Positions 5,701-22,503 of a stretch of 64,000 bases of DNA are shown here, one piece after another. Location of the stretch: NCBI GenBank assembly GCA_041659685.1, contig JBAZXV010000003.1:2040-66039 (forward strand), written 5' to 3'. The notes under the pieces were generated by a model. It searched no databases. It saw nothing but the letters and a program-made list of their open reading frames with translations, and was not told the DNA's origin. Source of the DNA: Parcubacteria group bacterium. Lineage in GTDB: Bacteria; Patescibacteriota; Minisyncoccia; Moranbacterales; UBA11712. Each line of letters begins with the position of its first letter. The first letter of the stretch is position 1. Made by a program: the position numbers and the translations under genes.

Positions 5701-5754
5701 TGATTTTAAGGTTCAACCTTAGCGAGGCGTTATTTTTAAGTAATTTATTCTTTA

Positions 5755-8102: not shown

Positions 8103-9065
8103 ATGGCTCAAAAATCAAGCCTTCTGGCCATTCTCAAGGCAATCATCATGGTTATCTTCCTACCGATTACTTTGATTTGGATTGTTTGGAAAAAGACCGA
8201 CTGGGAAAAAAGAAACAAATGGATCGCAACCGCCGCTGTCGTGGTTGTTTTTTTGTTCATGATCCCGTCCGATGAGAAAAAAGATCCTGTTGAGCAAAAA
8301 GCGGCTACGCAAGCAGAAAATCAAGTCCGAAGCGAGAATCAATCAACTGAAACTGTTGCGACAGAAGTGGAGCAACTTGCCGGCGATCAGAAAGAAGAAA
8401 TGCAAAAACCGGAAGGAGAAATATTCAAAGTGGCTCACGTTGTTGACGGCGACACAATCAAACTCGAGAACGGCCAAGTGGTGCGATATATTGGAATTGA
8501 TACTCCGGAAACAGTCGATCCCAGAAAACCGGTGCAATGTTTTGGAAAGGAAGCGAGCTCCAAAAACAAAGAGCTGGTCGAAGGAAAAGAGGTGAGGCTC
8601 GTGAAAGATGTTTCCGAAACTGACAAATATGACCGGCTTCTCCGGTATATTTATGTCGGTGATATTTTCGTGAATGATTATCTCGCGCGAAACGGCTTTG
8701 CCAAATCTTCGACTTATCCGCCGGATGTGAAATATCAGGAACAATTCAAAAAAGCCGAAGAAGAAGCGAGAATCAATAAGCGGGGCCTATGGGCCGAAGG
8801 CGCTTGTCAAACCGAAACCGCACCCGAGGAAAAAACTCCAGCCTCATCCCCCGCCCCGTCGACCCAGGCTCCGGCACCAGCGAGCGTGACCGCACCCGTT
8901 CAATCGACGACTCCAAGCTCAACCGGAACTTTTGCCTGCAACTGCTCGAAAACCTGTCCTCAAATGAGCTCCTGCGCCGAAGCTCAATATCAGCTCAATG
9001 TCTGCGGCTGCACGAGAAGAGACGCCGACCACGACGGCATCGCCTGCGACGCGGATTGCCAGTGA
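8103..9065 (+). CDS. membrane-anchored thermonuclease (SNase family) with C-terminal Excalibur Ca-binding domain
   Basis: SNase motifs (VVDGDTIKL, RYIGIDTPE, DRLLRYIYV) are present. The N-terminus has a TM helix. The C-terminus has a Cys-rich DxDxDGxxC Excalibur signature (DADHDGIACDADC). Confidence 0.85.
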   Translation: MAQKSSLLAILKAIIMVIFLPITLIWIVWKKTDWEKRNKWIATAAVVVVFLFMIPSDEKKDPVEQKAATQAENQVRSENQSTETVATEVEQLAGDQKEEMQKPEGEIFKVAHVVDGDTIKLENGQVVRYIGIDTPETVDPRKPVQCFGKEASSKNKELVEGKEVRLVKDVSETDKYDRLLRYIYVGDIFVNDYLARNGFAKSSTYPPDVKYQEQFKKAEEEARINKRGLWAEGACQTETAPEEKTPASSPAPSTQAPAPASVTAPVQSTTPSSTGTFACNCSKTCPQMSSCAEAQYQLNVCGCTRRDADHDGIACDADCQ

Positions 9066-9114
9066 TTGATTCCTAAGGGTCAACTTTCGGAGAGGTTAAG
9101 GTTTTGAATAAAAA

Positions 9115-9897: not shown

Positions 9898-10416
9898 ATG
9901 GACAAAGAAAAAATTATTCAGCCACATGCCAGAGGCGAATATGATAAACTTAATGATTGCTATGAGGGGTTAGCTCAAAAAGTGACAGACTCATTGAATG
10001 AAACAGAAATTGGGATTTATTCTGATTGTTTTTTGCTTCATGCTAGAAATTTAATTGATTTTTTGTGCAATAAAGAGAAAAAAGACTATTTCAAGTGTCC
10101 AAAATGTAAATTACATATTTCAAGAGGCTATACACCCGATGATGTGGTTGCATCTGATTTCTTCTGCGATAAAAATCCACCCTCGAAAAAAACAGATATC
10201 CTTACCGAAGCAGAATATGACAGAATTAATAAACAACTTTCTCATATAACCCGTGCACGTTTGAAAGGTCAAATTAATTTTTTTGATGAAAGAAAATTAT
10301 TTGAAAGTATCTTTAATAATATTAAGGACGAATTGAAAAATTTTGATCAAAAAATAAATCAAGAATACGATTCATTGAAAGCCCGAGACTTAAGAATAAT
10401 TGACAGAGAATCTTAA
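9898..10416 (+). CDS. hypothetical protein, possibly HEPN-like (CxxC plus R-x6-H motif)
   Basis: 172-aa ORF translationally coupled to 9115..9894. Contains CPKC and RINKQLSH (Rx6H) motifs. The HEPN assignment is an inference only. Confidence 0.5.
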   Translation: MDKEKIIQPHARGEYDKLNDCYEGLAQKVTDSLNETEIGIYSDCFLLHARNLIDFLCNKEKKDYFKCPKCKLHISRGYTPDDVVASDFFCDKNPPSKKTDILTEAEYDRINKQLSHITRARLKGQINFFDERKLFESIFNNIKDELKNFDQKINQEYDSLKARDLRIIDRES

Positions 10417-10426
10417 AAAATTAAAT

Positions 10427-10455
10427 AAAATAGAACTTCTATAGAGTCTCCCAAG
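10427..10455 (+). repeat. degenerate copy of the double-palindrome repeat (AAATAGAACTTCTATAGAGTCTC)
   Basis: Similar to the TAGAAGCTTCTATAGAGGCCTCTA family. Confidence 0.55.
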
Positions 10456-10596
10456 TTTCAATTTGAGCGAAGCACGAGTGAAAAGCAGTTTTTTTGACTA
10501 TTTAGATCTTCTGTGGTAGCCTTTTTCGCTAAAAGTAGGTTACTGCATTAAGCGTATAAATTATTAAGATAGTATCAATTGTGATATAATAAAACT

Positions 10597-11205
10597 ATGT
10601 TTGATGACAGAAAAGCGACACAATTACTGAATTATCTTGCACAAAAAGAAGGTGGCAAGATTAACTTCTTAAAGTCGATGAAACTTGTTTATCTCATTGA
10701 TAAGTTTCATTTGAGAAAATACGGCAAAACAATTACAGGCGACCTTTATTATGCAATGAGTAAGGGTCCAGTTGCTTCAAATACTAAAGATATTTGCAAG
10801 TATATACTTCGAGATGATATGGACTATGGAAAAAATGACTATTATGACAAATACATAAAAAAAGGTCGAGTAAAGTTTACTCTTCAATCTATTCAACAGC
10901 CCGACCTTGAGTATTTCTCCGAAGTAGAGATTGAATCTATAGATGCGGTATATGAACAATTCAAGGGTTTCAGCGGTTTTAAATTAGTTGACATTACTCA
11001 CGACACATTTGAATGGAAATGCAAAAGTGAATTTTTAAAAAAAGGAGCCTTGAGAGAGCAAATGAGGTTAAGTGATTTTTTAATCGATCAAAGATATTCT
11101 GAAAGAAGCCCCTTAAGAATATTCAATACAACAAAAACTGATTTAGAAAGGGTTTCAAAAACTTATGATCTAATTAGAAATACTCGGCTGTCTTGTGAAT
11201 GTTGA
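10597..11205 (+). CDS. Panacea-domain (DUF4065 / SocA-like) protein, putative PanA antitoxin
   Basis: N-terminal region LLNYLAQKEGG..KLVYLID..YG..ITGDLYYAMSKGPV matches the DUF4065 signature (KL.Y.....G......A...GPV). Confidence 0.72.
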   Translation: MFDDRKATQLLNYLAQKEGGKINFLKSMKLVYLIDKFHLRKYGKTITGDLYYAMSKGPVASNTKDICKYILRDDMDYGKNDYYDKYIKKGRVKFTLQSIQQPDLEYFSEVEIESIDAVYEQFKGFSGFKLVDITHDTFEWKCKSEFLKKGALREQMRLSDFLIDQRYSERSPLRIFNTTKTDLERVSKTYDLIRNTRLSCEC

Positions 11206-11214
11206 TTGAATACT

Positions 11215-11673
11215 ATGAAGCGCATCAAGCAGATTGAAGAAGAAATTACTAAGGGTGTTGGTGCAGTTTTCAGATTCATAAACCCAGAATATTCAACGAG
11301 CATTCACCACTTTAAAATTCTTATAGGTATTGATAAATCGAAAGCAAAAGATGTTTTGCTTTTTCTAACCTGCACCTCAAAAAGTATTGTGATGAGAAGC
11401 TATGTGTTGATAAGTAATGTATTAATTATAAATAAAGATGAATATTGCGAATTAAGTGAAGAAACCTCAATTTTATGTAATGATATTGAAACTGTAAATA
11501 TTGATGACCTAGTTGGAAAATATCTCTCAGATTGCGAATTTAAGGTTTGCGAACGAATTAGTGATGATTTGTTAATTCGCATTTACCAAGTTATAAAAGA
11601 TTCGAGAGAGGTTAGCAAAAAACATAAAAAAATTATAAGAAAAAATTTGAACCAGAAAGGGATCATTGATTGA
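11215..11673 (+). CDS. hypothetical protein, candidate cognate toxin of the upstream Panacea antitoxin
   Basis: The ORF begins 10 nt after the stop of 10597..11205. No recognisable domain. The role is inferred from gene-pair architecture. Confidence 0.5.
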   Translation: MKRIKQIEEEITKGVGAVFRFINPEYSTSIHHFKILIGIDKSKAKDVLLFLTCTSKSIVMRSYVLISNVLIINKDEYCELSEETSILCNDIETVNIDDLVGKYLSDCEFKVCERISDDLLIRIYQVIKDSREVSKKHKKIIRKNLNQKGIID

Positions 11674-11700
11674 CGTTGCACAATTAATTCGAAACTATTA

Positions 11701-11778
11701 ACGGCCCGTAAGGCCTGTTTTTCTTTTTTTATGACTCTGTTAAAATGAAATAGAAGCTTCTATAGAGGCCTCTAAAAG
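11701..11778 (+). repeat. composite repeat: GGCCCGTAAGGCC hairpin + T-run, CTCTGTTAAAATGAAA, double palindrome
   Basis: Near-identical to 17322-17390. Confidence 0.75.
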
Positions 11779-11801
11779 TTTCAAATTATAGATTTTTAAA
11801 T

Positions 11802-12410
11802 ATGAAAAATAAATTTCAGATCTGTGTTTGCGGATGGTATTATTATCCAGAGTTTTATAAAGCCCTGCTTAGAGTCAAAGATAAATTCAGCATTATTGTA
11901 ATTGGAAATAAAGAAGGAGAAGTTTTTAATTTGCCTTTTGTCTTGAGAAACAATATCGGTTTGGATTGGGGTGCTTATTCTTTTTTTCTTGATAATAAAT
12001 GGGACGGCAAATCAAATGTTTTGTTTATGCAGGACGATTCAACAGTTTCTGATGGTTTTTTTGAGGAAATGTCCAAAATTTCTTTCGACCAAGCCTTTAT
12101 ATTTCGCAACCAAAAAGAGTTTGAAGAAAATTATAGCCACGGGAGAGCTTTTTTCGCTTCCGGAAAATTTCTTAAAAACTTGAATGAAGATGGCGGGATT
12201 TTGTTTGATGAAGGCAACAATGGTTTCATCGCCAAAGGGACTTCTTGGTCAGAAAAGCCGCCCAAGGGTTGCCAAGACCATAATGCGGGAATAAGAGACT
12301 TTACTTCAAAAGTTAAACGAATCGGTGAAAATAATCCTGAACTATCGGTAAATAAACAAGTTTATTCTGAAAAAGTGCGCTTGGGAAGAAGAGGAGTAAT
12401 CAGTAGATAA
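11802..12410 (+). CDS. hypothetical protein (Cys-rich N-terminus CVCGWYYYPEFY)
   Basis: 202-aa ORF in the AT-rich island. No domain recognised. Confidence 0.5.
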   Translation: MKNKFQICVCGWYYYPEFYKALLRVKDKFSIIVIGNKEGEVFNLPFVLRNNIGLDWGAYSFFLDNKWDGKSNVLFMQDDSTVSDGFFEEMSKISFDQAFIFRNQKEFEENYSHGRAFFASGKFLKNLNEDGGILFDEGNNGFIAKGTSWSEKPPKGCQDHNAGIRDFTSKVKRIGENNPELSVNKQVYSEKVRLGRRGVISR

Positions 12411-12446
12411 TTGATTTGGATAGTGATAAAATAAAAGAAGAAATTT

Positions 12447-13463
12447 ATGGAGAAAAATAATTTTAGCCAAGGCGAGATAGTCATCTATAAAACCCCTCAA
12501 AAAGAGGTGGAATTGAAAGTGCGTTTTGAAAAAGAAAATATCTGGTTGAATCAAAATCAAATCGCCCTACTTTTTGGCACGCAGAGGCCGGCAATCACCA
12601 AACATCTAAAGAATATTTTTGAAAGCGGAGAGCTTAAGGAAAAAGTGGTTAGTTCCATTTTGGAACTAACCACCGAGCATGGGGCCATCAAAGGAAAAAC
12701 GCAAACAAACAAGGTGAAATTTTATAATTTGGACGCTGTCATTTCTGTTGGCTATAGAGTAAATTCCCAAAGAGCCACGCAGTTTCGAATATGGGCGACC
12801 AAAATTTTGAAGCAATATTTGGTCAAGGGCTATGCCATCCATGAAAAACGCCTTTTGGAGACCCAAAGCAAATTTCATGAACTGCAAGAGTCGATTTTGT
12901 TTTTGCAAAAACAGTCAAAAAAGAAATTGCTGAAAGGCCAGGAAACGGAAATTTTGAATTTGCTTTCTGATTATTCCAAGACCCTCACTTTGCTGGAAAA
13001 ATACGACAAAGAAAAACTGGGCAGCCCCAAAGGAGCAAAAACAAAATTTGTTTTGAGATATGCCGATTGCGCGGGAATCATCGCCAAGCTCAAAAAAGAG
13101 CTGATTGCCAAAAAAGAGGCCGGCGATCTGTTCGGGCAGGCAAGAGGCGGAAGTTTTGAGGGGATTATCAAAGGACTTTATCAAACATTCGGCAAAAAAG
13201 AACTTTATCCATTGATCGAGGACAAAGCTTCTCATTTGCTCTATCTCATAATCAAAGATCACCCATTCTCCGACGGCAACAAGCGCTCGGCGGCGTTTTT
13301 GTTCGTCTATTTTTTGGATAAGGCAGACTATCTTTTCAAAAAGTCCGGCGAACGGAAAATCAATGACAACGCGCTCACCGCTTTGGCGCTTCTCATTGCT
13401 GAAAGCAATCCGAAAGACAAGGATGTTTTGATAAAAATCATAACCAACTTATTGGGTGATTGA
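12447..13463 (+). CDS. RhuM-family virulence protein with C-terminal Fic/Doc domain
   Basis: N-terminal RhuM-like block (IWLNQNQIALLFG..RPAITKHLKNIF..FRIWATKILKQYLVKGY) is present. The C-terminal Fic/Doc motif HPFSDGNKRSAAF matches HxFx(D/E)GNxR. Confidence 0.8.
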   Translation: MEKNNFSQGEIVIYKTPQKEVELKVRFEKENIWLNQNQIALLFGTQRPAITKHLKNIFESGELKEKVVSSILELTTEHGAIKGKTQTNKVKFYNLDAVISVGYRVNSQRATQFRIWATKILKQYLVKGYAIHEKRLLETQSKFHELQESILFLQKQSKKKLLKGQETEILNLLSDYSKTLTLLEKYDKEKLGSPKGAKTKFVLRYADCAGIIAKLKKELIAKKEAGDLFGQARGGSFEGIIKGLYQTFGKKELYPLIEDKASHLLYLIIKDHPFSDGNKRSAAFLFVYFLDKADYLFKKSGERKINDNALTALALLIAESNPKDKDVLIKIITNLLGD

Positions 13464-13487
13464 TTTTCTTTGCAAAAAATAATCAAG

Positions 13488-13512
13488 GTAGAAGCTTCTA
13501 TAGAGGCCTCTA
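13488..13512 (+). repeat. double-palindrome repeat TAGAAGCTTCTATAGAGGCCTCTA
   Basis: Perfect copy, two adjacent 12-bp palindromes. Confidence 0.8.
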
Positions 13513-13542
13513 GGAAAATAAGATATGAGAAATAAGAAATAA

Positions 13543-13580
13543 CCCCAGTTGAATGATGCGACAGAGTCGCAATTCAACGG
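13543..13580 (+). promoter_or_regulatory. about 15-bp-arm inverted repeat (GTTGAATGATGCGAC/GTCGCAATTCAAC) abutting the RBS of the small AbrB-like gene
   Basis: Seen directly. A related IR lies upstream of the decayed copy at 20630-20663. Confidence 0.5.
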
Positions 13581-13591
13581 AGTAAAAAAAT

Positions 13592-13762
13592 ATGGCTGAG
13601 AAAAAAGGTATAATCAAGCTTAAGAAAGCGAGTGCGTATAGTTTTTCCGTGACCATCCCGAAAGAAATCATCGAGAAATATAAATGGAGGGAAAAACAAA
13701 AGCTGGTCGTCACCGACAAAGGCCGCGGGAAGATAGAGATCAGCGATTGGCGGAGGAAGTGA
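13592..13762 (+). CDS. small AbrB/MazE/SpoVT-like (looped-hinge helix) DNA-binding protein, multicopy family
   Basis: 56 aa, below the ORF-track cutoff. Motif SFSVTIPKEIIEKY...DKGRGKIEISDWRR resembles the swapped-hairpin AbrB fold. A paralog lies at 18396..18575. Confidence 0.6.
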   Translation: MAEKKGIIKLKKASAYSFSVTIPKEIIEKYKWREKQKLVVTDKGRGKIEISDWRRK

Positions 13763-13820
13763 TCTTGGATAGAAAAACACTTTATTGCAAAAACACCGAA
13801 ATATAATATAATGCTTATAT

Positions 13821-14414
13821 ATGCCAGACACAGACCCATTACAAGATCAGGAAGGATTGTTGAGCATTGAGACTCCGCTAGTGTTCGCAGATGGAACGAC
13901 TTTTTTCAAAAACCTTGCCAAGGACTACATTGTCCATGAAAGAGGTTTTTTTATTTTGGGCCCGTCTGGTGTCGGCAAAAGCCATTATTACCGCAACCAG
14001 AAAGAGGGCGAAAAGCATTGGATCGATGCAGACCGGGTATGGCGCTGGTCCAAAGCGATGCCAAAAGGAGCTTGGTGGGAAAAAGGATTGGAAGTGTCTC
14101 AAGACGTTGAGTCTAAATGCGATATTATTACTGAAGAGGCGAAAAAAAAGGGCTTTTGGCTGATCGGCTCGGCCAATAATTGGCTGGTTCCGGATGCCAT
14201 CGTAATTCCGCATTGGCGCACTCATGTCAAATTCATAAAAAAAAGAGAACTCAATTTTGACGGAGGAGCGCGGTCAACTCCCAAAGATCTGGCCCAGGTA
14301 AAGAGTCACCGAAAATTAATCTCGCTTTGGGCAAAAAAAGGAGTGCCTAAGTTCAATTCCGTTGAGGAAGCGATAATGCACTTGGAAAATATTTATCATA
14401 AAAAATATAAATAA
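13821..14414 (+). CDS. P-loop NTPase (kinase-like) of unknown function
   Basis: Walker A motif GPSGVGKSH is present. The rest of the sequence is not assignable. Confidence 0.6.
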   Translation: MPDTDPLQDQEGLLSIETPLVFADGTTFFKNLAKDYIVHERGFFILGPSGVGKSHYYRNQKEGEKHWIDADRVWRWSKAMPKGAWWEKGLEVSQDVESKCDIITEEAKKKGFWLIGSANNWLVPDAIVIPHWRTHVKFIKKRELNFDGGARSTPKDLAQVKSHRKLISLWAKKGVPKFNSVEEAIMHLENIYHKKYK

Positions 14415-14418
14415 ACTT

Positions 14419-15000
14419 ATGTCAATGCCATCATTGAAAGACAAAAATAAAACAATTTTCTATTTTGGATTTGGCTCCAATAAAGATTTAGCGATGATGC
14501 AGCATATGATTGGCAAGAAAAAGATCAAAGGAATCCGCGGAGTTTTGATCGGCTACGAAATTTGTATCCAGCGGGCAGACCAGTTCAGAACAGATATTCC
14601 GCCAACAACCCCTTATCCGGCTTCTCCAAAGGATTTAATTTTGGAAACCTGGGGACCAAAGTTCGAAATGTATGTTTCTCGTCCAAATCCGACGGGTCTC
14701 GCCTATGGCATGATTTGGGAGCTGACTCCGGAAGACTTGGAACTGGTCAGGGAATGGGAGCTGGTTGATTATGGGGCGCAAGAAGACGCCTGGGGCATTG
14801 CCCTTGATTCCAAAGGCAAAATGTATGAAGTGATTACACAAAGTTTTATGAAACCGCCAATTGATATTGACCGGGTTGTTAAGGGGAAAAAATACCCTGC
14901 ATATATTGCGTCAAAAAAAGCCATGCTCAAACGAGCTGACGAGTTGCGGGAGCAATACTTGAAGCAAAATAAATACAAGAAACCTGTTAAATTTGATTAG
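14419..15000 (+). CDS. gamma-glutamyl cyclotransferase-like (AIG2/GGCT fold) protein
   Basis: N-terminal YFGFGSN motif is characteristic of the GGCT-like family. Confidence 0.65.
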   Translation: MSMPSLKDKNKTIFYFGFGSNKDLAMMQHMIGKKKIKGIRGVLIGYEICIQRADQFRTDIPPTTPYPASPKDLILETWGPKFEMYVSRPNPTGLAYGMIWELTPEDLELVREWELVDYGAQEDAWGIALDSKGKMYEVITQSFMKPPIDIDRVVKGKKYPAYIASKKAMLKRADELREQYLKQNKYKKPVKFD

Positions 15001-15938
15001 ACGAGAGACTCTAATTTTACGGCGAAGGTTCTTGCGCCTACCGAAGTCTCGGCGGTTTTATCAGATGATCTTTTAATAACCAGTCCCCCGCCCTTTTCCA
15101 TCGGTACGAATCCTTTTGCCGGATCGATGCCTGCCAAATGGCTTTTTACCCAGGGACTCAAGTTGTCATAATGCCCGATAGCAAAAATAACGACTCTTTT
15201 TTGAGGGTTGCCCTCTTGGTGCAAATCAACAATTGTGGTGGCAATGCTGACGAAGTGATCAACCCTATCCGAAATATCGGTTGGGCCTTCAGCGCGAAGT
15301 TCCGTGCGCCTTACCTGTTCGGCGTCTTCTTCAAAAGCCTTCCAAAAATCCCTTCCGGCGCCATATCTTTTAACAAGGAAGTTATGAAATTCTTTTTCGC
15401 CCTCGGATCCTAACGGGTGCATGAGCCGGAGGTCGTTCAAGATATTGGTAGCTATCGGCCTGCCGTGCTGTGTCGTCAAGACTTCTTCTGGATCAATATC
15501 ATGCTTCGTCATTGATTTTAGTATGCCGGCTATCGCTCGGTCGCCTGTTTCCATCGCCCTTTGATGGGCACTGCGCAGACCGTTCGGCCCGGGCGTAACC
15601 AAATGTGTTTCGCCGGCAATGACCACCACATCCAAATCGCTGCGCTCCTCCGCGGGGAGAGTGTTGTAAATCTGATCCATGAACGATTCGATGCGTGCTT
15701 CAAATTCCGCGGCTTGTTCCGGATACAAAGCGCCGATTTCCCCGTCCTTGGGGTCTCGTATGTCTTTGACATTCACTATTAGGTTGATAAGAGCAGCGCC
15801 TTTTTCAAATTCCTGAGGAGGCTTCAGATCTTCCTTTTTTACTATGATTCTCTCGGCTTCCGGTATTGCCTCGGCGCTTTCTGAAACGGAAAAACCTTCA
15901 GCTCCATGTATGGGTATTTTTTTAGGTTCTTCGATCAT
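14997..15938 (-). CDS. hypothetical protein
   Basis: 313-aa ORF with no confident domain. There is a weak resemblance to the histidine-phosphatase superfamily C-terminal SHG region. Confidence 0.55.
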   Translation of the reverse strand: MIEEPKKIPIHGAEGFSVSESAEAIPEAERIIVKKEDLKPPQEFEKGAALINLIVNVKDIRDPKDGEIGALYPEQAAEFEARIESFMDQIYNTLPAEERSDLDVVVIAGETHLVTPGPNGLRSAHQRAMETGDRAIAGILKSMTKHDIDPEEVLTTQHGRPIATNILNDLRLMHPLGSEGEKEFHNFLVKRYGAGRDFWKAFEEDAEQVRRTELRAEGPTDISDRVDHFVSIATTIVDLHQEGNPQKRVVIFAIGHYDNLSPWVKSHLAGIDPAKGFVPMEKGGGLVIKRSSDKTAETSVGARTFAVKLESLV

Positions 15939-16091
15939 ATTTGATTCAGTTATGGTATAACAACTTATACGGAAAGACTGCGATTGATCGGCTCATGTCT
16001 GTTATTTTAGCACAACCGCGTCGCAATACAATTATACATAAGACTAATAATATTATAAAATACGGACAATACTGTTAAACTTCGTTAAGGC

Positions 16092-16124
16092 TCGATCTTT
16101 GCAAAGTTTAACAGTTATGAGACT
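16092..16124. promoter_or_regulatory. inverted repeat CTGTTAAACTT-N11-AAGTTTAACAG in a divergent intergenic region
   Basis: Perfect 11-bp arms. Lies between the divergently oriented 14997..15938 (-) and 16343 (+) genes. Confidence 0.4.
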
Positions 16125-16129
16125 GGTTG

Positions 16130-16205
16130 AAATGGAGGCTTCTATCGCCTGCGGCAGAGGCCGCGGCGTGGTTGAAATCTGCGATTGGAGGAAAAGATAA
16201 TTAAC
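16130..16205 (+). pseudogene. decayed remnant: repeat fragment (GAGGCTTCTAT) fused to the AbrB-like gene 3' end (..GRGRGVVEICDWRKR*)
   Basis: Direct similarity to 13700-13762 and 18520-18575. Confidence 0.55.
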
Positions 16206-16212
16206 GATTCCA

Positions 16213-16247
16213 TCTCTTGCCAGCCTCTGCGGGCTGGTTTTTTTGTA
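16213..16247 (+). terminator. rho-independent terminator (CCAGCC..GGCTGG + T7)
   Basis: Hairpin followed by a T-run. Confidence 0.6.
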
Positions 16248-16342
16248 TCCGATGCGGGAGATGATTATATGTTTCAGCCAAAGAAATAATTCCCATAGCC
16301 GGTTTGTATATATATTGTAGAAATAATACGTAAATAAAAACT

Positions 16343-16717
16343 ATGGCTAAGTACGTCGACGGGTTCGTACTTCCCGTTCCGAAGAAAAATATCGCAAGCT
16401 ATCGCAAAATGGCCCAAATAGGAGCCAGGGTTTGGAAAAAATATGGAGCGATCGAGTATATCGAGGCGGTCGGCGAAGATCTTAATCCCAAGTCGATGGG
16501 GATGAAATTCCTCACCTTTGCGAAAATAGCCAAGGCAAAGCCGGGAGAAACAGTGGTTTTTTCGTTTATTGTCTTCAAATCGCGCAAGCATCGCGATCAG
16601 GTGAATGCCAAGGTCATGAAAGCGATGATGAGCGACCCGAAAAGTAAAGACATGCAGATGCCGTTCGATATGAAACGCATGGCCTACGGCGGATTCGAGG
16701 TGATCGCCCAAAGCTAG
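16343..16717 (+). CDS. DUF1428 family protein
   Basis: MAKYVDGFVLPVPKKN...YIE.VGEDL matches the DUF1428 N-terminal signature. Confidence 0.8.
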   Translation: MAKYVDGFVLPVPKKNIASYRKMAQIGARVWKKYGAIEYIEAVGEDLNPKSMGMKFLTFAKIAKAKPGETVVFSFIVFKSRKHRDQVNAKVMKAMMSDPKSKDMQMPFDMKRMAYGGFEVIAQS

Positions 16718-16783
16718 TTGAAACATCAAAGTTGAGGTTTTGAAATTATATTTCTAATTTTTAAATGACGGATATTCAACCAT

Positions 16784-17275
16784 ATGCAAAAAATAACACC
16801 AAATTTGTGGTTCGACTCGCAAGCTGAAGAAGCTGCGAACTTCTACGTTTCCGTTTTCAATGATTCAAAGATCAAAAAAATTTCTCGCTACCCCAAAGCG
16901 TCCGAGTCCGTTTCGGGGAAAACCGCTGGCAGCGTCATGACAGTGGCATTCGAAATCGAAGGACAGGATTTTTTGGCCTTGAACGGCGGGCCCCAATTCA
17001 AATTCAGTGAAGCTGTTTCTTTCATTGTGAACTGCGAGGATCAGGAGGAAGTTGATTACTATTGGGAGAAACTCACCGAAGGAGGAGATGAAAAAGATCA
17101 AATTTGCGGGTGGCTGAAGGACAAATTCGGCCTGAGCTGGCAGATCGTGCCCAAAAGACTCGAAGAATTGATGAGCGATTCCGATCCCGAAAAAGTTGAA
17201 AGGGTCACGGCGGTCTTTCTCGAGATGAAGAAGATTGTTGTCGCGGATCTCGAAAAAGCCTTCAGAGGAAAATAG
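16784..17275 (+). CDS. VOC (glyoxalase/PhnB-like) family protein
   Basis: ITPNLWFD..AEEA.NFYVSVF....V.FE..GQ.F.ALNGGP matches the PhnB/3-demethylubiquinone-9 3-methyltransferase-like VOC family. Confidence 0.8.
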   Translation: MQKITPNLWFDSQAEEAANFYVSVFNDSKIKKISRYPKASESVSGKTAGSVMTVAFEIEGQDFLALNGGPQFKFSEAVSFIVNCEDQEEVDYYWEKLTEGGDEKDQICGWLKDKFGLSWQIVPKRLEELMSDSDPEKVERVTAVFLEMKKIVVADLEKAFRGK

Positions 17276-17321
17276 CCTTCGGACACGACTTCGATTTGAT
17301 TTTCAAGTAGGAAACAGACTG

Positions 17322-17390
17322 ATTGCCTGTTTTTCTTTTTTTGCGGCTCTGTTAAAATGAAATAGAAGCTTCTATAGAGCCCTCTATGAT
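17322..17390 (+). repeat. composite repeat: GCCTGTTTTTCTTTTTTT, CTCTGTTAAAATGAAA, double palindrome
   Basis: Near-identical to 11701-11778. Confidence 0.75.
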
Positions 17391-17484
17391 TCGACTTTAG
17401 CGAAGCGTTAAGGCTTTTTTCTTGAAAAAAAGCGGTTTTCGGGATAGGATGAAGATATAATCCAGGGTTGTTCAAACAAATTTT

Positions 17485-18333
17485 ATGGGAAAAAACAAAA
17501 AACAAATCGCCATTTTTGAAGGCAAAAAAATCCGCCGCCATTGGGACGGGAAAAAAGAAAAATGGTATTTTTCGGTCGTGGATATCGTTGCCGTGTTGAC
17601 AGACAGCGAAAATCCGCAGGTTTACTGGCGTGTGCTGAAAAAACGCCTGCTTGACGAGGGTTCAACTGAAACCGTTACAAAATGTAACGGTTTGAAAATG
17701 CGAGCTTCCGACGGAAAAATGAGAATAACCGATGTCGCAGACGTCGAAACACTGCTGCGGCTCGTTCAATCTGTACCGAGTCCAAAAGCCGAACCGATCA
17801 AACTCTGGCTCGCGCGGGTCGGCTATGAAAGAATGCAAGAAACGATTGATCCGGAAAAATCCATAAACAGGGCTAGGATGAACTGGCAAAGGCTCGGCCG
17901 GAGCCAAAAGTGGATCCAGCAGAGAATGATGGGCCAGGAAACCCGAAACAAGCTCACCGATTATTGGAAAGATCACGAAATCAGCCAACAAGAGGAATAT
18001 GCGATTCTGACGAATATTATTCACGAAGAATGGAGCGACCTGTCGGTGCAAGGGCACAAAAAACTGAAAGGGATCAAGGCTGAAAACCTGCGCGACCATA
18101 TGACGGAAGCAGAACTAATTTTCACGGCGCTGGCCGAACTTTCAACCCGCCAAATCGCCGAAACGGATCAGGCAACCGGATTCGAGGAAAACAAATCTCC
18201 GGCGAGAAGCGGCGGACGGATCGCCAAGCGCGCCCGGCTGGATCTGGAAAGAAAAACCGGAAAAAAGATTGTGACCAAAGAAAATTTCAAATTGCCAGGC
18301 GGAAAAACCAAACAAATTCGCAACAGGAAATAA
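17485..18333 (+). CDS. DNA-damage-inducible protein D-like / Bro-N domain protein
   Basis: N-terminal Bro-N-like region (IRRHWDGKKEKWYFSVVDIVAVLT). The C-terminal region aligns by eye with DinD. Confidence 0.65.
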   Translation: MGKNKKQIAIFEGKKIRRHWDGKKEKWYFSVVDIVAVLTDSENPQVYWRVLKKRLLDEGSTETVTKCNGLKMRASDGKMRITDVADVETLLRLVQSVPSPKAEPIKLWLARVGYERMQETIDPEKSINRARMNWQRLGRSQKWIQQRMMGQETRNKLTDYWKDHEISQQEEYAILTNIIHEEWSDLSVQGHKKLKGIKAENLRDHMTEAELIFTALAELSTRQIAETDQATGFEENKSPARSGGRIAKRARLDLERKTGKKIVTKENFKLPGGKTKQIRNRK

Positions 18334-18359
18334 AATAGAAGCTTCTATAGAGGCCTCTG
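18333..18359 (+). repeat. double-palindrome repeat
   Basis: AAATAGAAGCTTCTATAGAGGCCTCTGAAG. It overlaps the TAA stop of the upstream gene. Confidence 0.8.
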
Positions 18360-18395
18360 AAGAAATAAAATATAAAAAATAAAATGTAAAAAGTT

Positions 18396-18575
18396 ATGAC
18401 TGAGAAAAAAGGCGTCCACAAGCTTAAGAAATCGAGCGCGTATAGTTTCTCCGTGACCATCCCCAAAGAAATCGTCGAAAAATACGGCTGGAAAGAGAAG
18501 CAAAAGCTGGCAGTCATCGACAAAGGCCGCGGCGTCGTCGAGATCCGCGACTGGCGGAAGAGGCAATTCAAATAG
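18396..18575 (+). CDS. small AbrB/MazE/SpoVT-like protein, second copy
   Basis: 59 aa, about 70% identical to the 13592..13762 product. Confidence 0.6.
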   Translation: MTEKKGVHKLKKSSAYSFSVTIPKEIVEKYGWKEKQKLAVIDKGRGVVEIRDWRKRQFK

Positions 18576-18604
18576 CAAGGGCAAAATAAATCGTTTTTTA
18601 AATC

Positions 18605-19876
18605 ATGAAAGAGAAATTGAATAAACTCTACCGCGAGACTTTTTCTTCACTGGCAAATCGTAATTTCCGTTTGTATTTCATCGGACAAAGCATTTCAATG
18701 ACTGGCTATTTCATGCAAGGAATTGCTCTTGCCTGGCTTGTCCTCAAAATCACAAACTCGGGCACCGCTCTGGGATTCGCCGTATCTTTGCAATATGCGC
18801 CCATGCTCGTGCTGGGGCCTTGGGGTGGAATGATCGCGGATCGTTTTTCCAAGCGCGTCCTTCTTATTATAACCAAAGCGGTCTTCGGCATTCTGGCTTT
18901 TTTGCTGGGCATCCTTGTCCTCACGGGGACGATCCAAATTTGGATGATTTATCTTTTGAGTCTGGCCGTTGGAATTGTGGGTCTGATTGATAGCCCCGCC
19001 TATTATGCTTTCGTTTCCGAACTGGTCGAGGGACATGAAGTTAAGAATGCCGTCACGCTCAACGCTAGCATGATAAATTTGACCAGAGTTGCCGGACCGG
19101 CATTGGCCGGCATTCTGATCGCCACAGTCGGAATCGCTCCCTGCTTCCTTCTCAACGGCGCTTCTTATATTGTCATCATTGTTGCCCTTCTTCGCATTAA
19201 AAAGGATGAGCTTCAAAAAATTTCACCGCTCGTCAAATCAAAAGGAATGGTTTGGGAAGGTTTTCGCCATGTGATGTCAAAACCTGTCCTTGCCAGTACA
19301 GTTGTCATGATTGCGATAATCGGCACACTTACCTATGAATTTCCAGTGAGCTTGGCGCTGTTTGCCAAGACTACATTTCATGGCAGTGCTGGCGGCTACG
19401 CTGCCTTGACTGGAGCTCTCGGGCTGGGATCTGTTCTCGGGGGACTTTTTCACGCCAGACGAAAAATTAAAAGTTCAAGCACGCTGGCAATGGCCGCACT
19501 CATATTCGGTTGCTCTGTCATTTTTGCGTCTTTTATGCCAACTTTAGTTTTAGCGGCGGGTGTTATGACACTGGTCGGAGCGTGTTCCATTTGGTTTGCC
19601 ACCCTCGCCAACACGACTTTGCAGCTCAATAGCGATCCGCAGCTCCGTGGAAGGGTCATGGTGCTTTGGTCAATGTCTTATCTCGGCTCCACGGCTATCG
19701 GCGGTCCGCTGATCGGCTGGATCGGCGAACACACTGGTCCGCGGTGGAGTTTGGCCGTCGGAGGATTGGCAGCGATTGTCGCCGCGGCCTTGGGATTTAT
19801 TATTATACGCAATCAGAAACGCCTGCCTGCAGTAACCGAAGCAGAAACCACATCCAATCTCTATAAAACAAAATAG
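18605..19876 (+). CDS. MFS transporter (EntS/YbdA-like, 12 TM)
   Basis: Typical MFS N-terminal pattern and multiple TM segments. The TAG stop lies inside a double-palindrome repeat. Confidence 0.88.
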   Translation: MKEKLNKLYRETFSSLANRNFRLYFIGQSISMTGYFMQGIALAWLVLKITNSGTALGFAVSLQYAPMLVLGPWGGMIADRFSKRVLLIITKAVFGILAFLLGILVLTGTIQIWMIYLLSLAVGIVGLIDSPAYYAFVSELVEGHEVKNAVTLNASMINLTRVAGPALAGILIATVGIAPCFLLNGASYIVIIVALLRIKKDELQKISPLVKSKGMVWEGFRHVMSKPVLASTVVMIAIIGTLTYEFPVSLALFAKTTFHGSAGGYAALTGALGLGSVLGGLFHARRKIKSSSTLAMAALIFGCSVIFASFMPTLVLAAGVMTLVGACSIWFATLANTTLQLNSDPQLRGRVMVLWSMSYLGSTAIGGPLIGWIGEHTGPRWSLAVGGLAAIVAAALGFIIIRNQKRLPAVTEAETTSNLYKTK

Positions 19877-19898
19877 AAGTTTCTATGGAGGCCTCCGG
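19871..19898 (+). repeat. double-palindrome repeat (AAATAGAAGTTTCTATGGAGGCCTCC)
   Basis: Family member. It supplies the stop codon of the MFS gene. Confidence 0.75.
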
Positions 19899-19933
19899 CC
19901 GATTCCAAAAGAGAGATTACTCAAATTAAAATA

Positions 19934-20623
19934 ATGCGAGAAATATTCAAAGGGATTGTAAAGAATTTTAAAAGAACCGGCGTGCTACAAGAGGATGTCG
20001 CAATATTTTTAAGAATGCATGATTGTGAAGACACCATAAAACATGTTAATACTGTTGCTGAGGAAGCAAAAATATTGGCATCCCGTTTTTTTGAAAGCCA
20101 GGAAGACGCCTTTTCTGCGGGACTGCTTCATGATGTCAGCGTTTTGTTTCCCGAAGAGGATCGATTGAAGATTGCGAATGAACTCAAAATCGATGTTTTG
20201 CCGGAGGAAAAAATTTATCCGGCCATTCTCCACCAAAAAATTTCTCAAGTTATGGCTCGAGAAATTTTTGGAATTACGGATGAAAATGTTTTGAACGCAA
20301 TCGGTTGTCACACCACTCTCAAGGAAAATGCATCGGTTTTGGATAAAATTGTTTTTATATCCGATAAAATAAGGTGGGACCAGAAATATGATGCGCCTTT
20401 CAAGAGCGATGTTTCAAAAGCTTTGGATATTTCATTGGATGAATCCTGTTTTTGTTATTTGAATTATCTGTGGAACAGAAAAGAAAGTCTTGCGGTTGTG
20501 CATCCATGGATGGCAGCTGCCTACAGACAGCTGGGTAATGATTTAAAAAAATTCGGATTTAGTTTGATATATAATGATGATGGCAAAATAGAAGCTTCTA
20601 TGGAGGCCTCTAATAAAAATTAA
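19934..20623 (+). CDS. HD-domain protein, YqeK-like (bis(5'-nucleosyl)-tetraphosphatase family)
   Basis: H..V...A..LA.RF ... LLHDV ... YHT ... ISDKI pattern is typical of YqeK HD hydrolases. The 3' end reads through a double-palindrome repeat at 20586-20612. Confidence 0.72.
   Translation: MREIFKGIVKNFKRTGVLQEDVAIFLRMHDCEDTIKHVNTVAEEAKILASRFFESQEDAFSAGLLHDVSVLFPEEDRLKIANELKIDVLPEEKIYPAILHQKISQVMAREIFGITDENVLNAIGCHTTLKENASVLDKIVFISDKIRWDQKYDAPFKSDVSKALDISLDESCFCYLNYLWNRKESLAVVHPWMAAAYRQLGNDLKKFGFSLIYNDDGKIEASMEASNKN
20586..20612 (+). repeat. double-palindrome repeat inside the 3' end of the HD gene
   Basis: AATAGAAGCTTCTATGGAGGCCTCTAATAA. Confidence 0.75.
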
Positions 20624-20745
20624 CTCCTGTTGAATAATGCGAGCCGCGATTCAACGGGGAAAGTAAAAAATATGCCTGAGAAAAAATCCACTCATAAGCT
20701 CAAAAAATCGTTCTCGAAGAAGGCGTTTAATGGGGAGATATAGAA
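20620..20745 (+). pseudogene. truncated AbrB-like gene copy with upstream IR (MPEKKSTHKLKKSFSKKAFNGEI*)
   Basis: The 5' part matches 13543-13650 (IR + start) and is then interrupted by a stop. Confidence 0.55.
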
Positions 20746-20825
20746 TTAATTGGGTAGATTACTATATTATTGAGTAGATTTGATGGGTATTTGTGTAGAT
20801 TTTGATAATATGATACCATAGGAGC

Positions 20826-21545
20826 ATGGAAGAAAAATTACTTACAATTGGTCAAGCTGCGGAATATTTGGGGGTTTCTTTGAATACACTTCGCCGTTGG
20901 GATGAAAGCGGTAAATTGGTTGCGATCAAAAAAGAGGGCGGGACTCATCGTTATTACCGTGAAGATGATTTGGAAATATTTTCCAGTGATTTAACGAGGT
21001 TTGCTACGGAATGGATCCGAAATGGAGTTGAATTTCCAGGCACATTTTATTGCCAGACAAGTTCAATTTTTAACGCGAAATTGACGAAAATGCAAAGCGC
21101 GCTGATGCAAAAGCCAGGGTTTGAAGAGCTATATTCCTTGATTGTTTTAATTGCCGGAGAAATTGGCGATAATTCATTTGCTCACAATTTAGGGAAGTGG
21201 CCGGATACCGCGGGAATCTTTTTTGGTTATGATCTTGAAAAACGAATAATTGTTCTTGCTGACAGAGGATTGGGTATCTTGGAAACACTGCGACAAGTTC
21301 GACCGAAACTTCCAAATCATGTGGAAGCGGTAAAAGTAGCATTTACGGAATTTGTTTCCGGGCGTGCGCCGGAAAAGCGAGGCAACGGCCTTAAGCTTGT
21401 TCGCGAGGTTGTCACCGATCAGCCAATTGATTTATTTTTTATCAGCGGTGACGCCGAAGTGCGCATGAAAGGGCAAAATAAAGTATTTCGTGTTACGCGC
21501 GGCCAGCATATTGTGAGAGGATGTCTGGCTAAAATAGAATTCTAA
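20826..21545 (+). CDS. MerR-family HTH fused to a GHKL (HATPase_c, RsbW-like) ATPase/kinase domain
   Basis: N-terminal TIGQAAEYLGVSLNTLRRWDESGKL matches the MerR HTH. The C-terminal region has an N-box-like EIGDN..AHN and a G-box-like GRAPEKRGNGLKLV. Confidence 0.65.
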   Translation: MEEKLLTIGQAAEYLGVSLNTLRRWDESGKLVAIKKEGGTHRYYREDDLEIFSSDLTRFATEWIRNGVEFPGTFYCQTSSIFNAKLTKMQSALMQKPGFEELYSLIVLIAGEIGDNSFAHNLGKWPDTAGIFFGYDLEKRIIVLADRGLGILETLRQVRPKLPNHVEAVKVAFTEFVSGRAPEKRGNGLKLVREVVTDQPIDLFFISGDAEVRMKGQNKVFRVTRGQHIVRGCLAKIEF

Positions 21546-21567
21546 TACATCTTAAAAAGCAAAATAT

Positions 21568-21867
21568 ATGAAATTACAAATCGAAAAATTCGGCAAGACA
21601 TTAATTTCGCGGGAATTAGGCCGAGAGGCATTTAAGGCCTTTCAGCCAACCTTGCGCGACCTTCCTAAAAATGAAGATCTGGAGATAGATTTTTCCGGAG
21701 TATTGACATTGTCGCCATCATGGGCTGATGAATTTTTAAGCCCATTATTTGATCAACTGGATGACAAGTTAATAATCTTGCCAAGCGATAATCTTTCGGT
21801 GCGTGCGACGCTTAAAATTCTCGAAGAGGTCAATAAGCGGCCGTTCAAGATCAGGCCGCAATCCTGA
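21568..21867 (+). CDS. STAS-like (DUF4325-type) small protein, putative partner of the upstream GHKL protein
   Basis: 99 aa. The pattern is consistent with STAS/anti-sigma antagonist-like proteins. It lies 22 nt downstream of the previous gene. Confidence 0.55.
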   Translation: MKLQIEKFGKTLISRELGREAFKAFQPTLRDLPKNEDLEIDFSGVLTLSPSWADEFLSPLFDQLDDKLIILPSDNLSVRATLKILEEVNKRPFKIRPQS

Positions 21868-21929
21868 TTTAGTTTGAGTGATGTTCAAGCAGTGTAATAT
21901 TTATAAACTCATTCACCCTAAAAAGGAAG

Positions 21930-21982
21930 AGTCGAACAAAGGCCGCGGCGTGGTGGAAATCCGCGATTGGCGGAAGAAGTGA
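21930..21982 (+). pseudogene. 3' remnant of the AbrB-like gene (..KGRGVVEIRDWRKK*)
   Basis: Matches 18520-18575 with no start codon. Confidence 0.55.
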
Positions 21983-22133
21983 TCTGTGATTCAATACCCC
22001 GTCAGCATCAGTGGACTGACATTTTCTCTAAACAGGGTATTGAACCTTTAAGGAATAAGAAGATCAAAACAAATGATGATTGTGAAAAAACTATAACTAT
22101 CATAGGATTAAAGCAATATTAAGAGGATAGTAC

Positions 22134-22319
22134 ATGCGAGCAATTGAAGAATTCAAAAAGGAAATGGTTGAAGCCACGAAAAATTCAAAAGATGGCAAAA
22201 TATATCTTTTTGATGCCAAGGAAAGAGCGGCCAAAATTGAAGAGCTGAGAGCTGCGGGCAAGGAGCTTGTCGGAATCTTCATTGAGACTAAGGAGGACGA
22301 ACAATATTCAAAGTACTAG
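22134..22319 (+). CDS. small hypothetical protein
   Basis: 61-aa ORF with a lysine/glutamate-rich helical composition. Weak support. Confidence 0.35.
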   Translation: MRAIEEFKKEMVEATKNSKDGKIYLFDAKERAAKIEELRAAGKELVGIFIETKEDEQYSKY

Positions 22320-22475
22320 ATGAATTATACAGAATGGCGTCGAAATATCTTCAGAAATACATAGTGCGCGAGTTAAAAGAACTTAAGGATCACGGACACA
22401 CCTGGAAAGATTTTCGGATGGTCGATCCGTTCGGTTTTTATCTGAGATTCACAGAACTCATCGACTGGGGACAAA

Positions 22476-22503
22476 AATAGAAGCTTCCATGGAGGCCTCT
22501 AAA
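22476..22503 (+). repeat. double-palindrome repeat followed by a terminator-like hairpin
   Basis: AAAATAGAAGCTTCCATGGAGGCCTCTAAATT, then CCAGCTCGAGCCGGCTGG+T6 at 22505-22535. Confidence 0.75.

Follow-up and report, generated by a model that had tools for sequence, protein, structure and literature searches.

We have analysed a stretch of 64,000 nucleotides (nt) from a Parcubacteria group bacterium (GTDB lineage Bacteria; Patescibacteriota; Minisyncoccia; Moranbacterales; UBA11712), corresponding to positions 2,040 to 66,039 of the forward strand of contig JBAZXV010000003.1 in assembly GCA_041659685.1. This whole stretch is called the window below, and all coordinates count from its first letter. 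At 1-31 kb the genes lie almost all on the + strand, including essentially every gene with Pfam support. They consist of one core gene, rsgA, and of small accessory genes: a methyltransferase, a P-loop kinase-like protein, a secreted SNase, SocA/Panacea, RhuM-Fic, Bro-N, MFS and HD proteins, a MerR-type helix-turn-helix protein, a DUF1428 protein, a glyoxalase-like 3-dmu-9_3-mt protein and MazE/AbrB-like proteins. Dispersed among these genes is a palindromic repeat of 24 nt, which is the subject of this paper.

A dispersed and polar family of 24-nt repeats

The repeat is a true dispersed family, present far above chance and polar relative to the genes. In a first pass TAGAAGCTTCTATAGAGGCCTCTA was matched to the window at up to three mismatches, giving nine matches, all on the + strand, while 100 shuffles gave none; a tenth copy, at 19874, matches with four mismatches. 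A scan with a profile built from the window copies, where E<1e-6 defines a clear copy, gives 12 clear copies. The same scan finds two decayed copies on the + strand (4838-4865 and 10426-10453), besides a remnant (6668-6678) and a half unit (16128-16145). In total 14 members lie inside 2.0-22.5 kb, with 0.7-3.9 kb and ordinary genes between copies, and one lies at 36.6 kb; the chance expectation is none. The original prediction of at least 14 copies in 64 kb is borne out by the 12 clear and three to four decayed ones, and its coordinates were correct to within 0-7 nt.

The members are listed here, where a module is one of the promoter-like segments treated in the next section and ORF stands for open reading frame:

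2017-2040, + strand: copy with a decayed second unit (TAGAGGCTTCTGCGGAGGCTTTTG), 12 nt past the module at 1977-2004 and 18 nt before the rsgA ATG at 2059
3226-3249, + strand: copy with a perfect predicted RNA stem, 40 nt past the rsgA stop and 5 nt past the module at 3193-3220
4631-4654, + strand: decayed copy, after a terminator (4526-4559) and the module at 4590-4618; non-coding DNA with a long hairpin follows
7982-8005, + strand: copy with a perfect predicted stem and a T-run behind it, after a terminator (about 7882-7914) and the module at 7946-7973; the SNase gene starts at 8103
10426-10453, + strand: decayed copy with deletions (TAGAACTTCTATAGAGTCTCCCA), directly after ORF 9898-10416
11751-11774, + strand: exact canonical copy, 4 nt past the extended -10-like TGTTAAAAT (11738-11746), with T-runs at 11718-11730; an ATG lies at 11802, 27 nt downstream
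13489-13512, + strand: exact canonical copy, 26 nt past the stop of the RhuM/Fic ORF and 79 nt before a MazE/AbrB-like gene (13592-13762)
16128-16145, + strand: remnant of a half unit, joined to a piece from the 3' part of a MazE/AbrB-like gene
17363-17386, + strand: copy 4 nt past TGTTAAAAT (17350-17358), followed by a terminator-like hairpin (17395-17413) with T6 and a promoter-like site (17422-17450)
18336-18359, + strand: copy 2 nt past the stop of the Bro-N ORF and 36 nt before a MazE/AbrB-like gene (18396-18575)
19874-19897, + strand: copy with four mismatches, on whose first TAG the MFS gene stops; the HD gene has its ATG (19934) 36 nt downstream
20589-20612, + strand: copy that the HD gene contains at its 3' end and translates in frame as IEASMEAS; next come a GTTGAAT...ATTCAAC hairpin and a decayed MazE/AbrB-like ORF
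22478-22501, + strand: last copy of the cluster, whose TAG is the stop of a 48-aa ORF (22334-22480); two canonical terminators follow
36577-36600, + strand: isolated copy with a perfect predicted stem (A-U at pair 5/20), 6 nt past the module at 36543-36570; non-coding hairpins follow

Judged by sequence comparison, the repeat is built of two or three tandem 12-bp units of the form TAGA-R-GC-Y-TCTA. The core 8-mer GARGCYTC occurs 24 times in the window, where about three occurrences are expected, and 20 of these lie within copies; what is repeated is therefore the double unit, as opposed to a word that occurs freely. Of the two units the first is the better conserved. A core of two perfect 12-bp palindromes, as originally described, is found in copies 11751 and 13489 only. 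Substitutions among the window copies cluster at positions 11-14, i.e. in the loop of the hairpin discussed below, and include A14G, which destroys the second TAGA. Directly 5' of nearly all window copies stands AAAA.

To compare the window with related genomes we used about 630 kb of related sequence around repeat copies. These loci were picked by a seed pattern, which biases the variant statistics, and their genes are crude longest-ORF calls in which the antisense of MazE-like genes is miscalled. In the window every minus-strand match is the palindromic echo of a + strand copy, so the claim that all copies are in + orientation stands. The agreement with gene direction is complete in the window and in the closest relatives. 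Outside the window it becomes a bias, with 19 sense and 8 antisense copies (co-directional flanking genes, crude gene calls).

The clear copies fall into two classes. Seven of them (2017, 3226, 4631, 7982, 11751, 17363 and 36577) start 4-13 nt after a promoter-like module. The other five (13489, 18336, 19874, 20589 and 22478) either overlap a stop codon or follow one at a distance of 0-26 nt, without a convincing promoter. The placement at gene 3' ends that had been proposed for the whole family is thus right for these five and wrong for the seven that follow modules. That copies can overlap or supply a stop codon is confirmed: the MFS ORF (18605-19876) and the 48-aa ORF (22334-22480) both end on the first TAG of a repeat, and the HD ORF (19934-20623) is translated through its copy, which is conserved in a homologue (L092).

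Promoter-like modules, terminators and the predicted hairpin

Two types of module are found. Type 1, TTGCCC-N16/17-(TGn)TAGGAT, has seven homologous copies in the window:

1977-2004, + strand: promoter-like module TTGCCC-N16-TGnTAAGAT, with sisters at 3193-3220, 4590-4618, 5665-5692, 6623-6650, 7946-7973 and 36543-36570

Type 2, CTGTTAAAAT, has two copies, the module at 11713-11774 and that of copy 17363, which are 94% identical over 62 nt. What is duplicated in the window is the whole module of 60-110 nt and not the 24-mer alone. Modules of both types precede unrelated window genes, and the same modules occur in relatives. In a set of 73 de-duplicated isolated copies taken across genomes, 16 have an extended -10 box (TGnTAnnAT) within 30 nt upstream, compared with 0 of 73 on the control side, and the usual spacer is 4-8 nt. 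A looser -10 pattern, TAnnnT, was also tried and is no different from the control; only the extended form is enriched.

One module, at 5665-5692, carries no repeat. It ends 7 nt before the ATG (5700) of the methyltransferase gene at 5700-6536 and therefore behaves like a promoter; its position suggests that the mRNA of this gene may be leaderless. At the start codons of this region a Shine-Dalgarno sequence is generally absent. A Shine-Dalgarno role for the GGAGG in the 3' arm of the repeat was rejected, as its distance to start codons is inconsistent (7-250 nt).

Near-identical promoter-like intergenic segments in front of non-homologous genes are what one would expect of reused or mobile promoters. 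The reuse of promoters before unrelated genes is documented in prokaryotes (PMC3575422). The putative mobile promoters described by Nijveen, Matus-Garcia and van Passel (PMC3575422) share with our modules that similar promoter-bearing segments stand before unrelated genes within and across genomes. They differ in that the module described here carries a hairpin or palindrome at the predicted transcript start, and this hairpin also occurs free of a promoter.

Upstream of the module, copies 2017, 4631, 7982, 11751 and 17363 have a canonical terminator, i.e. a GC-rich hairpin with a T-run, or a T-run. The order at these five is stop, canonical terminator, promoter-like module, repeat and start, so that the upstream gene has been closed off ahead of the repeat. 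This bears on the possibility that the repeats themselves are terminators, either intrinsic ones for the upstream genes or minus-strand ones that stop antisense transcription into the promoters. Two window copies, 7982 and 3226, are indeed flagged as terminator-like, and the AAAA in front of nearly all copies is a T-run on the other strand. However, 10 of the 12 clear copies lack a T-run on the sense strand, which leaves only 7982 and, weakly, 3226 with the make-up of an intrinsic terminator, and canonical terminators are already present upstream of the five copies and downstream of 22478. Further, the genes with Pfam support at 1-31 kb essentially all read in the + direction, which leaves no known transcription of the minus strand that would need stopping, and near its loop the minus-strand fold carries a C.A mismatch. 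In relatives the picture is partly different. Among the 73 isolated copies the sub-type with a perfect stem (G5) is enriched for a downstream T-run (12/25 versus 7/48, p=0.004) and is found with a T-run directly after tRNA genes in two loci (L025 and L080), so there it looks like a terminator, while the canonical sub-type (A5) is enriched for an upstream A-run (26/48 versus 4/25, p=0.002). The original statement that the repeats are not ordinary terminators is hence right within the window, but less so for this sub-type of the relatives. As an account of the window copies we regard terminators as the least probable of the explanations considered.

When folded as RNA, the canonical repeat is predicted to form a 10-bp stem, and not one of 11 bp as originally proposed. 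The stem closes a loop of 4 nt and contains an A.C mismatch, and the predicted energy is -8.8 kcal/mol for both strands. The perfect-stem variants are predicted to be more stable, at -15.4 (3226) and -13.0 (36577) kcal/mol in sense and -11.5 and -9.1 kcal/mol in antisense. A form with three units, found in relatives, is a perfect 36-nt palindrome with a predicted -28.5 kcal/mol. In five of six leaders folded in context the hairpin is predicted to fold as a separate module. The variants of the window fold better on the sense than on the antisense strand in seven cases and worse in none. As a discriminator this strand asymmetry (G.U) test was discarded, since sense is favoured in the window and not in the relatives and the sample is biased by the seed pattern.

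Two further hairpin-forming sequences accompany the repeat. A second family of small hairpins, CTAAGG-n5-CCTTAG ... GCTAG, is found at 3257-3285, 9068-9100 and 17395-17413 as well as in three related loci (L016, L027 and L033), often just 3' of the 24-mer; the T6 run after the hairpin at 17395-17413 gives this one the look of a terminator. A non-coding repeat of 110 nt with a 16-bp hairpin is present at 4656-4766 and 36376-36486 (87% identical), downstream of the promoter and 24-mer at 4631 and upstream of the promoter and 24-mer at 36577. Together with a terminator-like site at 4789-4807 it may represent a small RNA.

Related genomes and the shuffling of genes

A degenerate 23-mer of the repeat is found in 27 stretches of GTDB genomes, nearly all of them from metagenome-assembled genomes (MAGs) of Candidatus Moraniibacteriota, Moranbacteria or Patescibacteria; the number of Moraniibacteriota/Patescibacteria MAGs that have it is about 10. 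Metagenomes add 71 stretches, and viral contigs gave no match to the 23-mer. Exact copies number 1-4 on relatives' contigs of 100-1000 kb, with four on a contig of 998 kb. Two loci, L028 and L040, match parts of the window with 100% identity, and L016 (JBAZYY010000003.1) has 73-79% nucleotide identity to window genes. The window therefore derives from a Moranbacteria-like member of the Candidate Phyla Radiation. Similarly dense arrays are seen in L016, L011 and L068. In L068 each of four short intergenic spacers holds one copy, with 2-11 nt between the stop and the hairpin and 7-18 nt from there to the ATG. In six lineages a repeat is placed ahead of rsgA, with a -10-like box before it and the ATG behind it; the order of units is swapped there and their number is two or three. 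What is conserved at this site is therefore a palindrome or hairpin and not an asymmetric word.

Copies are also found inside genes. They are read in frame as (I/V/L)EASIEAS in PolA, DnaE and an acidic protein, and as LEASIEAS in the methionyl-tRNA synthetase (MetRS) of L018, where there is no evidence of insertion. In the MetRS of L066 (6303-6327, on the 998-kb contig) the repeat is read in another frame, as YRGFYRGLY. Compared with L018, L005 and L074, the conserved YKGEYEGLY has there become YRGFYRGLY through 10 nt differences and no indel. To judge from this alignment, the copy looks like conversion, or a strong drive towards the repeat sequence, rather than insertion.

The idea of a proliferating miniature mobile element is not supported. 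No RAYT (REP-associated tyrosine transposase, where REP stands for repetitive extragenic palindromic), IS200-type or other recombinase or transposase is present among the window ORFs, and no such family recurs among the 286 ORF families that adjoin copies in the relatives; a crude motif scan for RAYT, transposase or integrase was negative as well. There are no terminal inverted repeats beyond the palindrome. A target duplication is not demonstrable, as the sole filled-versus-empty comparison has non-homologous downstream flanks, and a search for empty sites by flank matching gave no filled/empty pair homologous on both sides but only polymorphisms of two versus three units and one gene-end case. 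Miniature inverted-repeat transposable elements of the Correia, RUP or BOX kind measure about 100-150 nt or consist of modular boxes, and they have terminal inverted repeats and a target duplication; this identity was rejected also on size (24-36 nt here), and the MetRS copy of L066, which arose by a 10-nt substitution without an indel, is unlike the insertion of such an element.

Gene order has nevertheless changed around the repeats. L016 has the order rsgA, MFS, an unidentified gene and SNase, while in the window rsgA, SNase and MFS (compared over 1979-3285, 7960-9063 and 18605-19822) lie 5-10 kb apart, and repeats or modules are found at the junctions of this rearrangement. The module, the copy and the SNase gene are linked in L016 too. 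On these comparisons the 2-22.5 kb part of the window is an accessory-gene island that has been rearranged. Downstream of gene 22334-22480 each of three genomes has a different neighbour, two of them with the repeat on the stop codon and one without; of its orthologues L047 has a copy and L020/L070 do not. The homology sometimes spans promoter and hairpin together with the downstream gene (SNase) and sometimes the hairpin together with the upstream gene (HD, 3' side of rsgA). The hairpin travels with either gene side, and therefore there is no fixed cassette structure.

Such shuffling could mean that the repeat is the recombination site of a gene-cassette array, where a recombinase inserts, excises and shuffles small gene units as at attC sites or Xer-dependent dif modules. 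The 14 same-orientation copies in 20 kb that separate small unrelated accessory genes, the dense arrays of the three relatives, the changed gene order with repeats at the junctions, the one upstream gene with three different neighbours and the half-unit fused to a gene fragment at 16128-16145 all fit. Arrays of attC, also the sedentary ones, likewise consist of small unrelated accessory genes in one orientation, some of toxin-antitoxin type, separated by a similar hairpin repeat. However, attC sites are 57-141 nt long and not 24 nt, and neither R''/L''/L'/R' boxes, a GTTRRRY core nor IntI were found; the window contains no integrase or recombinase, and none recurs in the vicinity of repeats. 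Many units have a promoter of their own, core genes (rsgA, tRNAs) are flanked as well, and homology often ends at gene ends or includes the promoter instead of ending at the hairpin. Ordinary homologous recombination between the 60-110-nt modules accounts for the shuffling, and a dedicated recombination site seems very improbable. The nearby GTTGAAT...ATTCAAC hairpins were considered as attC sites and rejected: they are opposite in polarity to R''/R', the 24-mer has no core site, and the window has no intI and no tyrosine recombinase.

The repeat could also be a passenger without function, i.e. a palindrome, selfish or neutral, that is spread by short-patch conversion and along with duplicated modules; its position and polarity would result from tolerance and from the mode of copying. 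Modules of 60-110 nt are repeated whole, many copies are decayed, presence and absence differ at orthologous gene ends, a conserved MetRS motif has been converted without an indel, and a covariation signal is missing (see below). Rickettsia palindromic elements (RPEs) occur in frame in housekeeping genes, and the in-frame copies described above would by analogy fit a passenger. RPEs share with our repeat that they are palindromic and lie both between genes and in frame inside housekeeping genes; they differ in being insertions of 100-150 bp, while this element has 24-36 nt and at least one coding copy without a change in length. A passenger is hard to reconcile with a sequence that is nearly identical in many species and at many sampling sites, with the site upstream of rsgA that is kept in six lineages while the flanks diverge, and with sub-types tied non-randomly to T-runs, A-runs and -10 boxes. 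Neutral retention would probably also be less likely in very compact genomes. All in all we consider this explanation unlikely.

Some features of the window have no direct connection with the repeat. GC falls to 0.357 at 8-12 kb. Other intergenic repeats, an inverted repeat TTTCCTAACATTCAATGTTAGGA (554-576, 33531-33553, 36344-36366, 36645-36667 and 52336-52358) and GAAATACTTACCGAGGTAAGTATTTGAATACGTAT (32110-32184, 33441-33515, 34966-35040 and 52233-52326), occupy the right half of the window, so that intergenic repeats differ between parts of the contig. A match to LOOT RNA (RF03000, 70.5 bits) at 38763-38894 on the minus strand overlaps the start of a 670-aa minus-strand gene (36796-38808). 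Three tandem coding repeats of 186 nt (57534-57979) lie within a 571-aa minus-strand gene (57116-58831), and diverged duplications of about 1.56 kb, 71-72% identical, are found at 59483-62176.

A possible boundary element of the REP type

The explanation that we favour, with a probability of roughly 0.4, is a REP-like, lineage-wide palindromic repeat carried on duplicated promoter or intergenic modules, which most likely acts as a boundary stem-loop in the sense transcript and not as a terminator. Whole oriented modules, consisting of promoter or A-run plus hairpin, would have been copied, and gene units would have been shuffled at these modules. The uniform orientation is best accounted for by descent from such copied oriented modules. 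A reused promoter-like module of the sigma-70 type would then start the transcript at or just before the stem-loop, given the usual distance from -10 box to start. In the sense transcript the 24-mer is predicted to be an independent 10-bp stem-loop with A-rich single strands on either side. As an RNA boundary element it would guard two ends against exonucleases, namely the 5' end of the RNA that follows and the 3' end of the RNA that precedes it, and it may mark processing points between cistrons. Transcription would not stop at these copies, because there is no U-run and canonical terminators are present separately. In favour of such a hairpin are the substitutions of the window copies, which gather in the loop, the sense-strand folds of these copies and the separate folding in five of six leaders; the ordered modules, the extended -10 boxes, the rsgA sites and the L068 spacers fit it too.

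It should be noted that several observations weigh against a boundary stem-loop. The promoter, the start site, the RNA hairpin and the effect on stability are all predictions. A second promoter-like site lies between repeat and gene in two places (3287-3315 for the gene at 3307, 17422-17450 for the gene at 17485). Downstream of 4631 and 36577 the sequence is non-coding and hairpin-rich, and 17363 is followed by non-coding DNA too. The non-seed copies of the relatives more often favour the antisense fold, so that the sense-strand advantage of the window copies does not hold in general. Covariation of the long hairpin is no better than in shuffles (85.7% of cells paired); two 12-bp palindromes fit slightly better (90.6%) and are likewise not above shuffles. 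The commonest form combines two perfectly palindromic DNA units with an A.C mismatch in the RNA stem, and it is the perfect-stem variant that is tied to T-runs. Of 123 instances, 121 have a spacer of 4 nt between the two cores, and a constraint on DNA spacing would also fit this. A simple stabiliser role explains neither the near-identical sequence across many species nor the copies within polA, dnaE and metG.

Part of this is what would be expected of a DNA operator, in which the tandem 12-bp palindromes, two or three per site, are bound by dimers of a small repressor, a MazE/AbrB-like or ribbon-helix-helix-type protein being the candidate. The site would span about +1 to +25 and block RNA polymerase, giving auto-regulation and control of accessory genes. 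The canonical form with its two perfect DNA palindromes and imperfect RNA stem, the strict phasing by a 4-nt spacer, the better conservation of the first unit, the position 4-8 nt downstream of an extended -10 box and the rsgA sites, which vary the order and number of units and keep the palindromes, all favour it. MetJ binds tandem met boxes. By analogy the architecture resembles the operators of beta-sheet DNA binders such as Arc, MetJ and antitoxins, with which it shares two or three abutting TAGA..TCTA palindromes in fixed phasing, just past a -10 box and often before a MazE/AbrB-type gene. Arc binds its 21-bp 'TAGA box' operator as a dimer of dimers (PMC12645479).

The candidate repressor is encoded in the window by two intact genes:

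13592-13762, + strand: MazE/AbrB-like gene of 56 aa (Pfam MazE_antitoxin), the commonest downstream neighbour of the repeat
18396-18575, + strand: second intact MazE/AbrB-like copy, with remnants at about 16155-16200, 20672-20743 and 21937-21980

The gene encodes 56-59 aa and thus has two intact and three decayed copies within 9 kb of the window. It is also the commonest gene family in the loci fetched via the repeat (18 intact copies), where 12 of the 18 have a repeat in sense orientation 18-98 nt upstream and 6 have none, in loci that were chosen for carrying the repeat. Between the 24-mer and the start of the MazE/AbrB-like gene a two-tier hairpin (CCCCaGTTGAATnaTGCGAnnnnTCGCAATTCAACGGGG) is conserved, at 13543-13580 and 20624-20658 and in L011, L015 and L095. 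It matches no Rfam family and could be a leader structure or an operator.

Against an operator speak, besides these six genes, the variants of the repeat: A14G, which turns TAGA into TGGA, is found in about one third of the copies and T11C is common, and both break palindromes while being silent in the hairpin loop. Further, unlike the operators of beta-sheet repressors, the repeat also lies behind stops, is terminator-like or stands inside genes: the five window copies and those of L068 follow stops with no recognisable promoter, and other members have T-runs after tRNA genes or lie within polA, dnaE and metG. We see the operator as the main rival of the boundary stem-loop, though a doubtful one, with the MazE/AbrB-like protein as a candidate for binding. 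Sequence statistics do not separate the RNA-level from the DNA-level readings.

A more far-reaching idea, to which we give little credence, is that a dedicated trans-acting protein, for which the MazE/AbrB-like one is the candidate, recognises the double palindrome, represses a regulon of accessory and defence-type genes and, via hairpin or cruciform, promotes the shuffling and patch conversion of promoter-gene units. If true, this pair of site and protein would be an integrase-less gene-cassette platform in bacteria of the Candidate Phyla Radiation (CPR). In a related variant, the units of promoter and 24-mer at 4631, 17363 and 36577 may give rise to small RNAs of one family, with a protein-binding handle in common at their 5' ends.

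Returning to the boundary stem-loop as the favoured explanation, the closest known systems are REPs and the mosaic elements (BIMEs, bacterial interspersed mosaic elements) that they form. REPs stabilise upstream mRNA segments. Both they and our repeat are imperfect palindromes of 20-40 nt in intergenic or intercistronic spacers, form mosaic modules with other motifs and give stem-loops in mRNA; here the predicted stem has 10 bp and -8.8 to -15.4 kcal/mol. In contrast to the REP/REPIN-RAYT system (REPINs being inverted REP doublets), the window copies all start with A-TAGA and lack the conserved GTAG head, there are tandem direct 12-bp units and no inverted doublets of the REPIN or BIME style, the orientation is single, and no RAYT was found in the window or among the ORF families that adjoin copies in the relatives. 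REPs are also species-specific, while this repeat is near-identical across many species, and many of its copies are promoter-proximal and not at gene 3' ends. Of the REP/BOX-like family that had been suggested, then, the dispersed, polar stem-loop repeat is retained, and the classical REP hallmarks are not.

Other known systems agree less well. The paired DNA uptake sequences (DUS) of Neisseria and the uptake signal sequences (USS) of Haemophilus are, like our repeat, words shared between species that form terminator hairpins and occur inside coding genes, including those for DNA maintenance, by substitution. However, the density in the relatives is far too low, single units are not enriched and the polarity is strong. 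An over-represented word of the DUS or HIP1 type was accordingly rejected, as the core is not enriched outside the 24-mers and there are 1-4 exact copies on contigs of 100-1000 kb compared with about one per kb. CRISPR or TIGR arrays were rejected because of the spacing of 0.7-3.9 kb with ordinary genes between copies, and because no Cas- or Tas-like Pfam domains are above threshold; two Cas3-related hits below threshold, one to a DEAD-box helicase (E 1.5e-4) and one to a metallophosphoesterase (2.7e-3), are taken as generic domain similarity. In Rfam 15 no family covers any copy at the gathering score, nor at E<=1 over 1500-23000. The literature search gave no paper with the 12-mers in a relevant context and none on REP-like repeats in CPR bacteria.

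Taken in a broad sense, the repeat is to all appearances an undescribed relative of the REP-type repeats of bacteria, because the sequence is common to many related species and is found after promoters, behind stops, as a terminator and inside genes. Its unusual features are the tandem 12-bp palindromic build, the conservation between species, the promoter-proximal placement and the strict polarity.

CPR bacteria, or Patescibacteria, have tiny genomes and are uncultivated, and almost nothing is known about their gene regulation and genome dynamics. If the repeat is only a duplicated leader hairpin, its value lies mainly in annotation. A lineage-wide palindrome that marks promoters, cistron boundaries and terminators would give a handle for finding the boundaries of transcription units, and it is useful for tracing how accessory-gene islands are rebuilt. 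Further, it lets one ask if CPR bacteria use stem-loops at 5' and 3' ends, or a small repressor of the MazE/AbrB type, as a general means of control. The concept of REP-like repeats would then extend to a family that is conserved between species and apparently has no RAYT.

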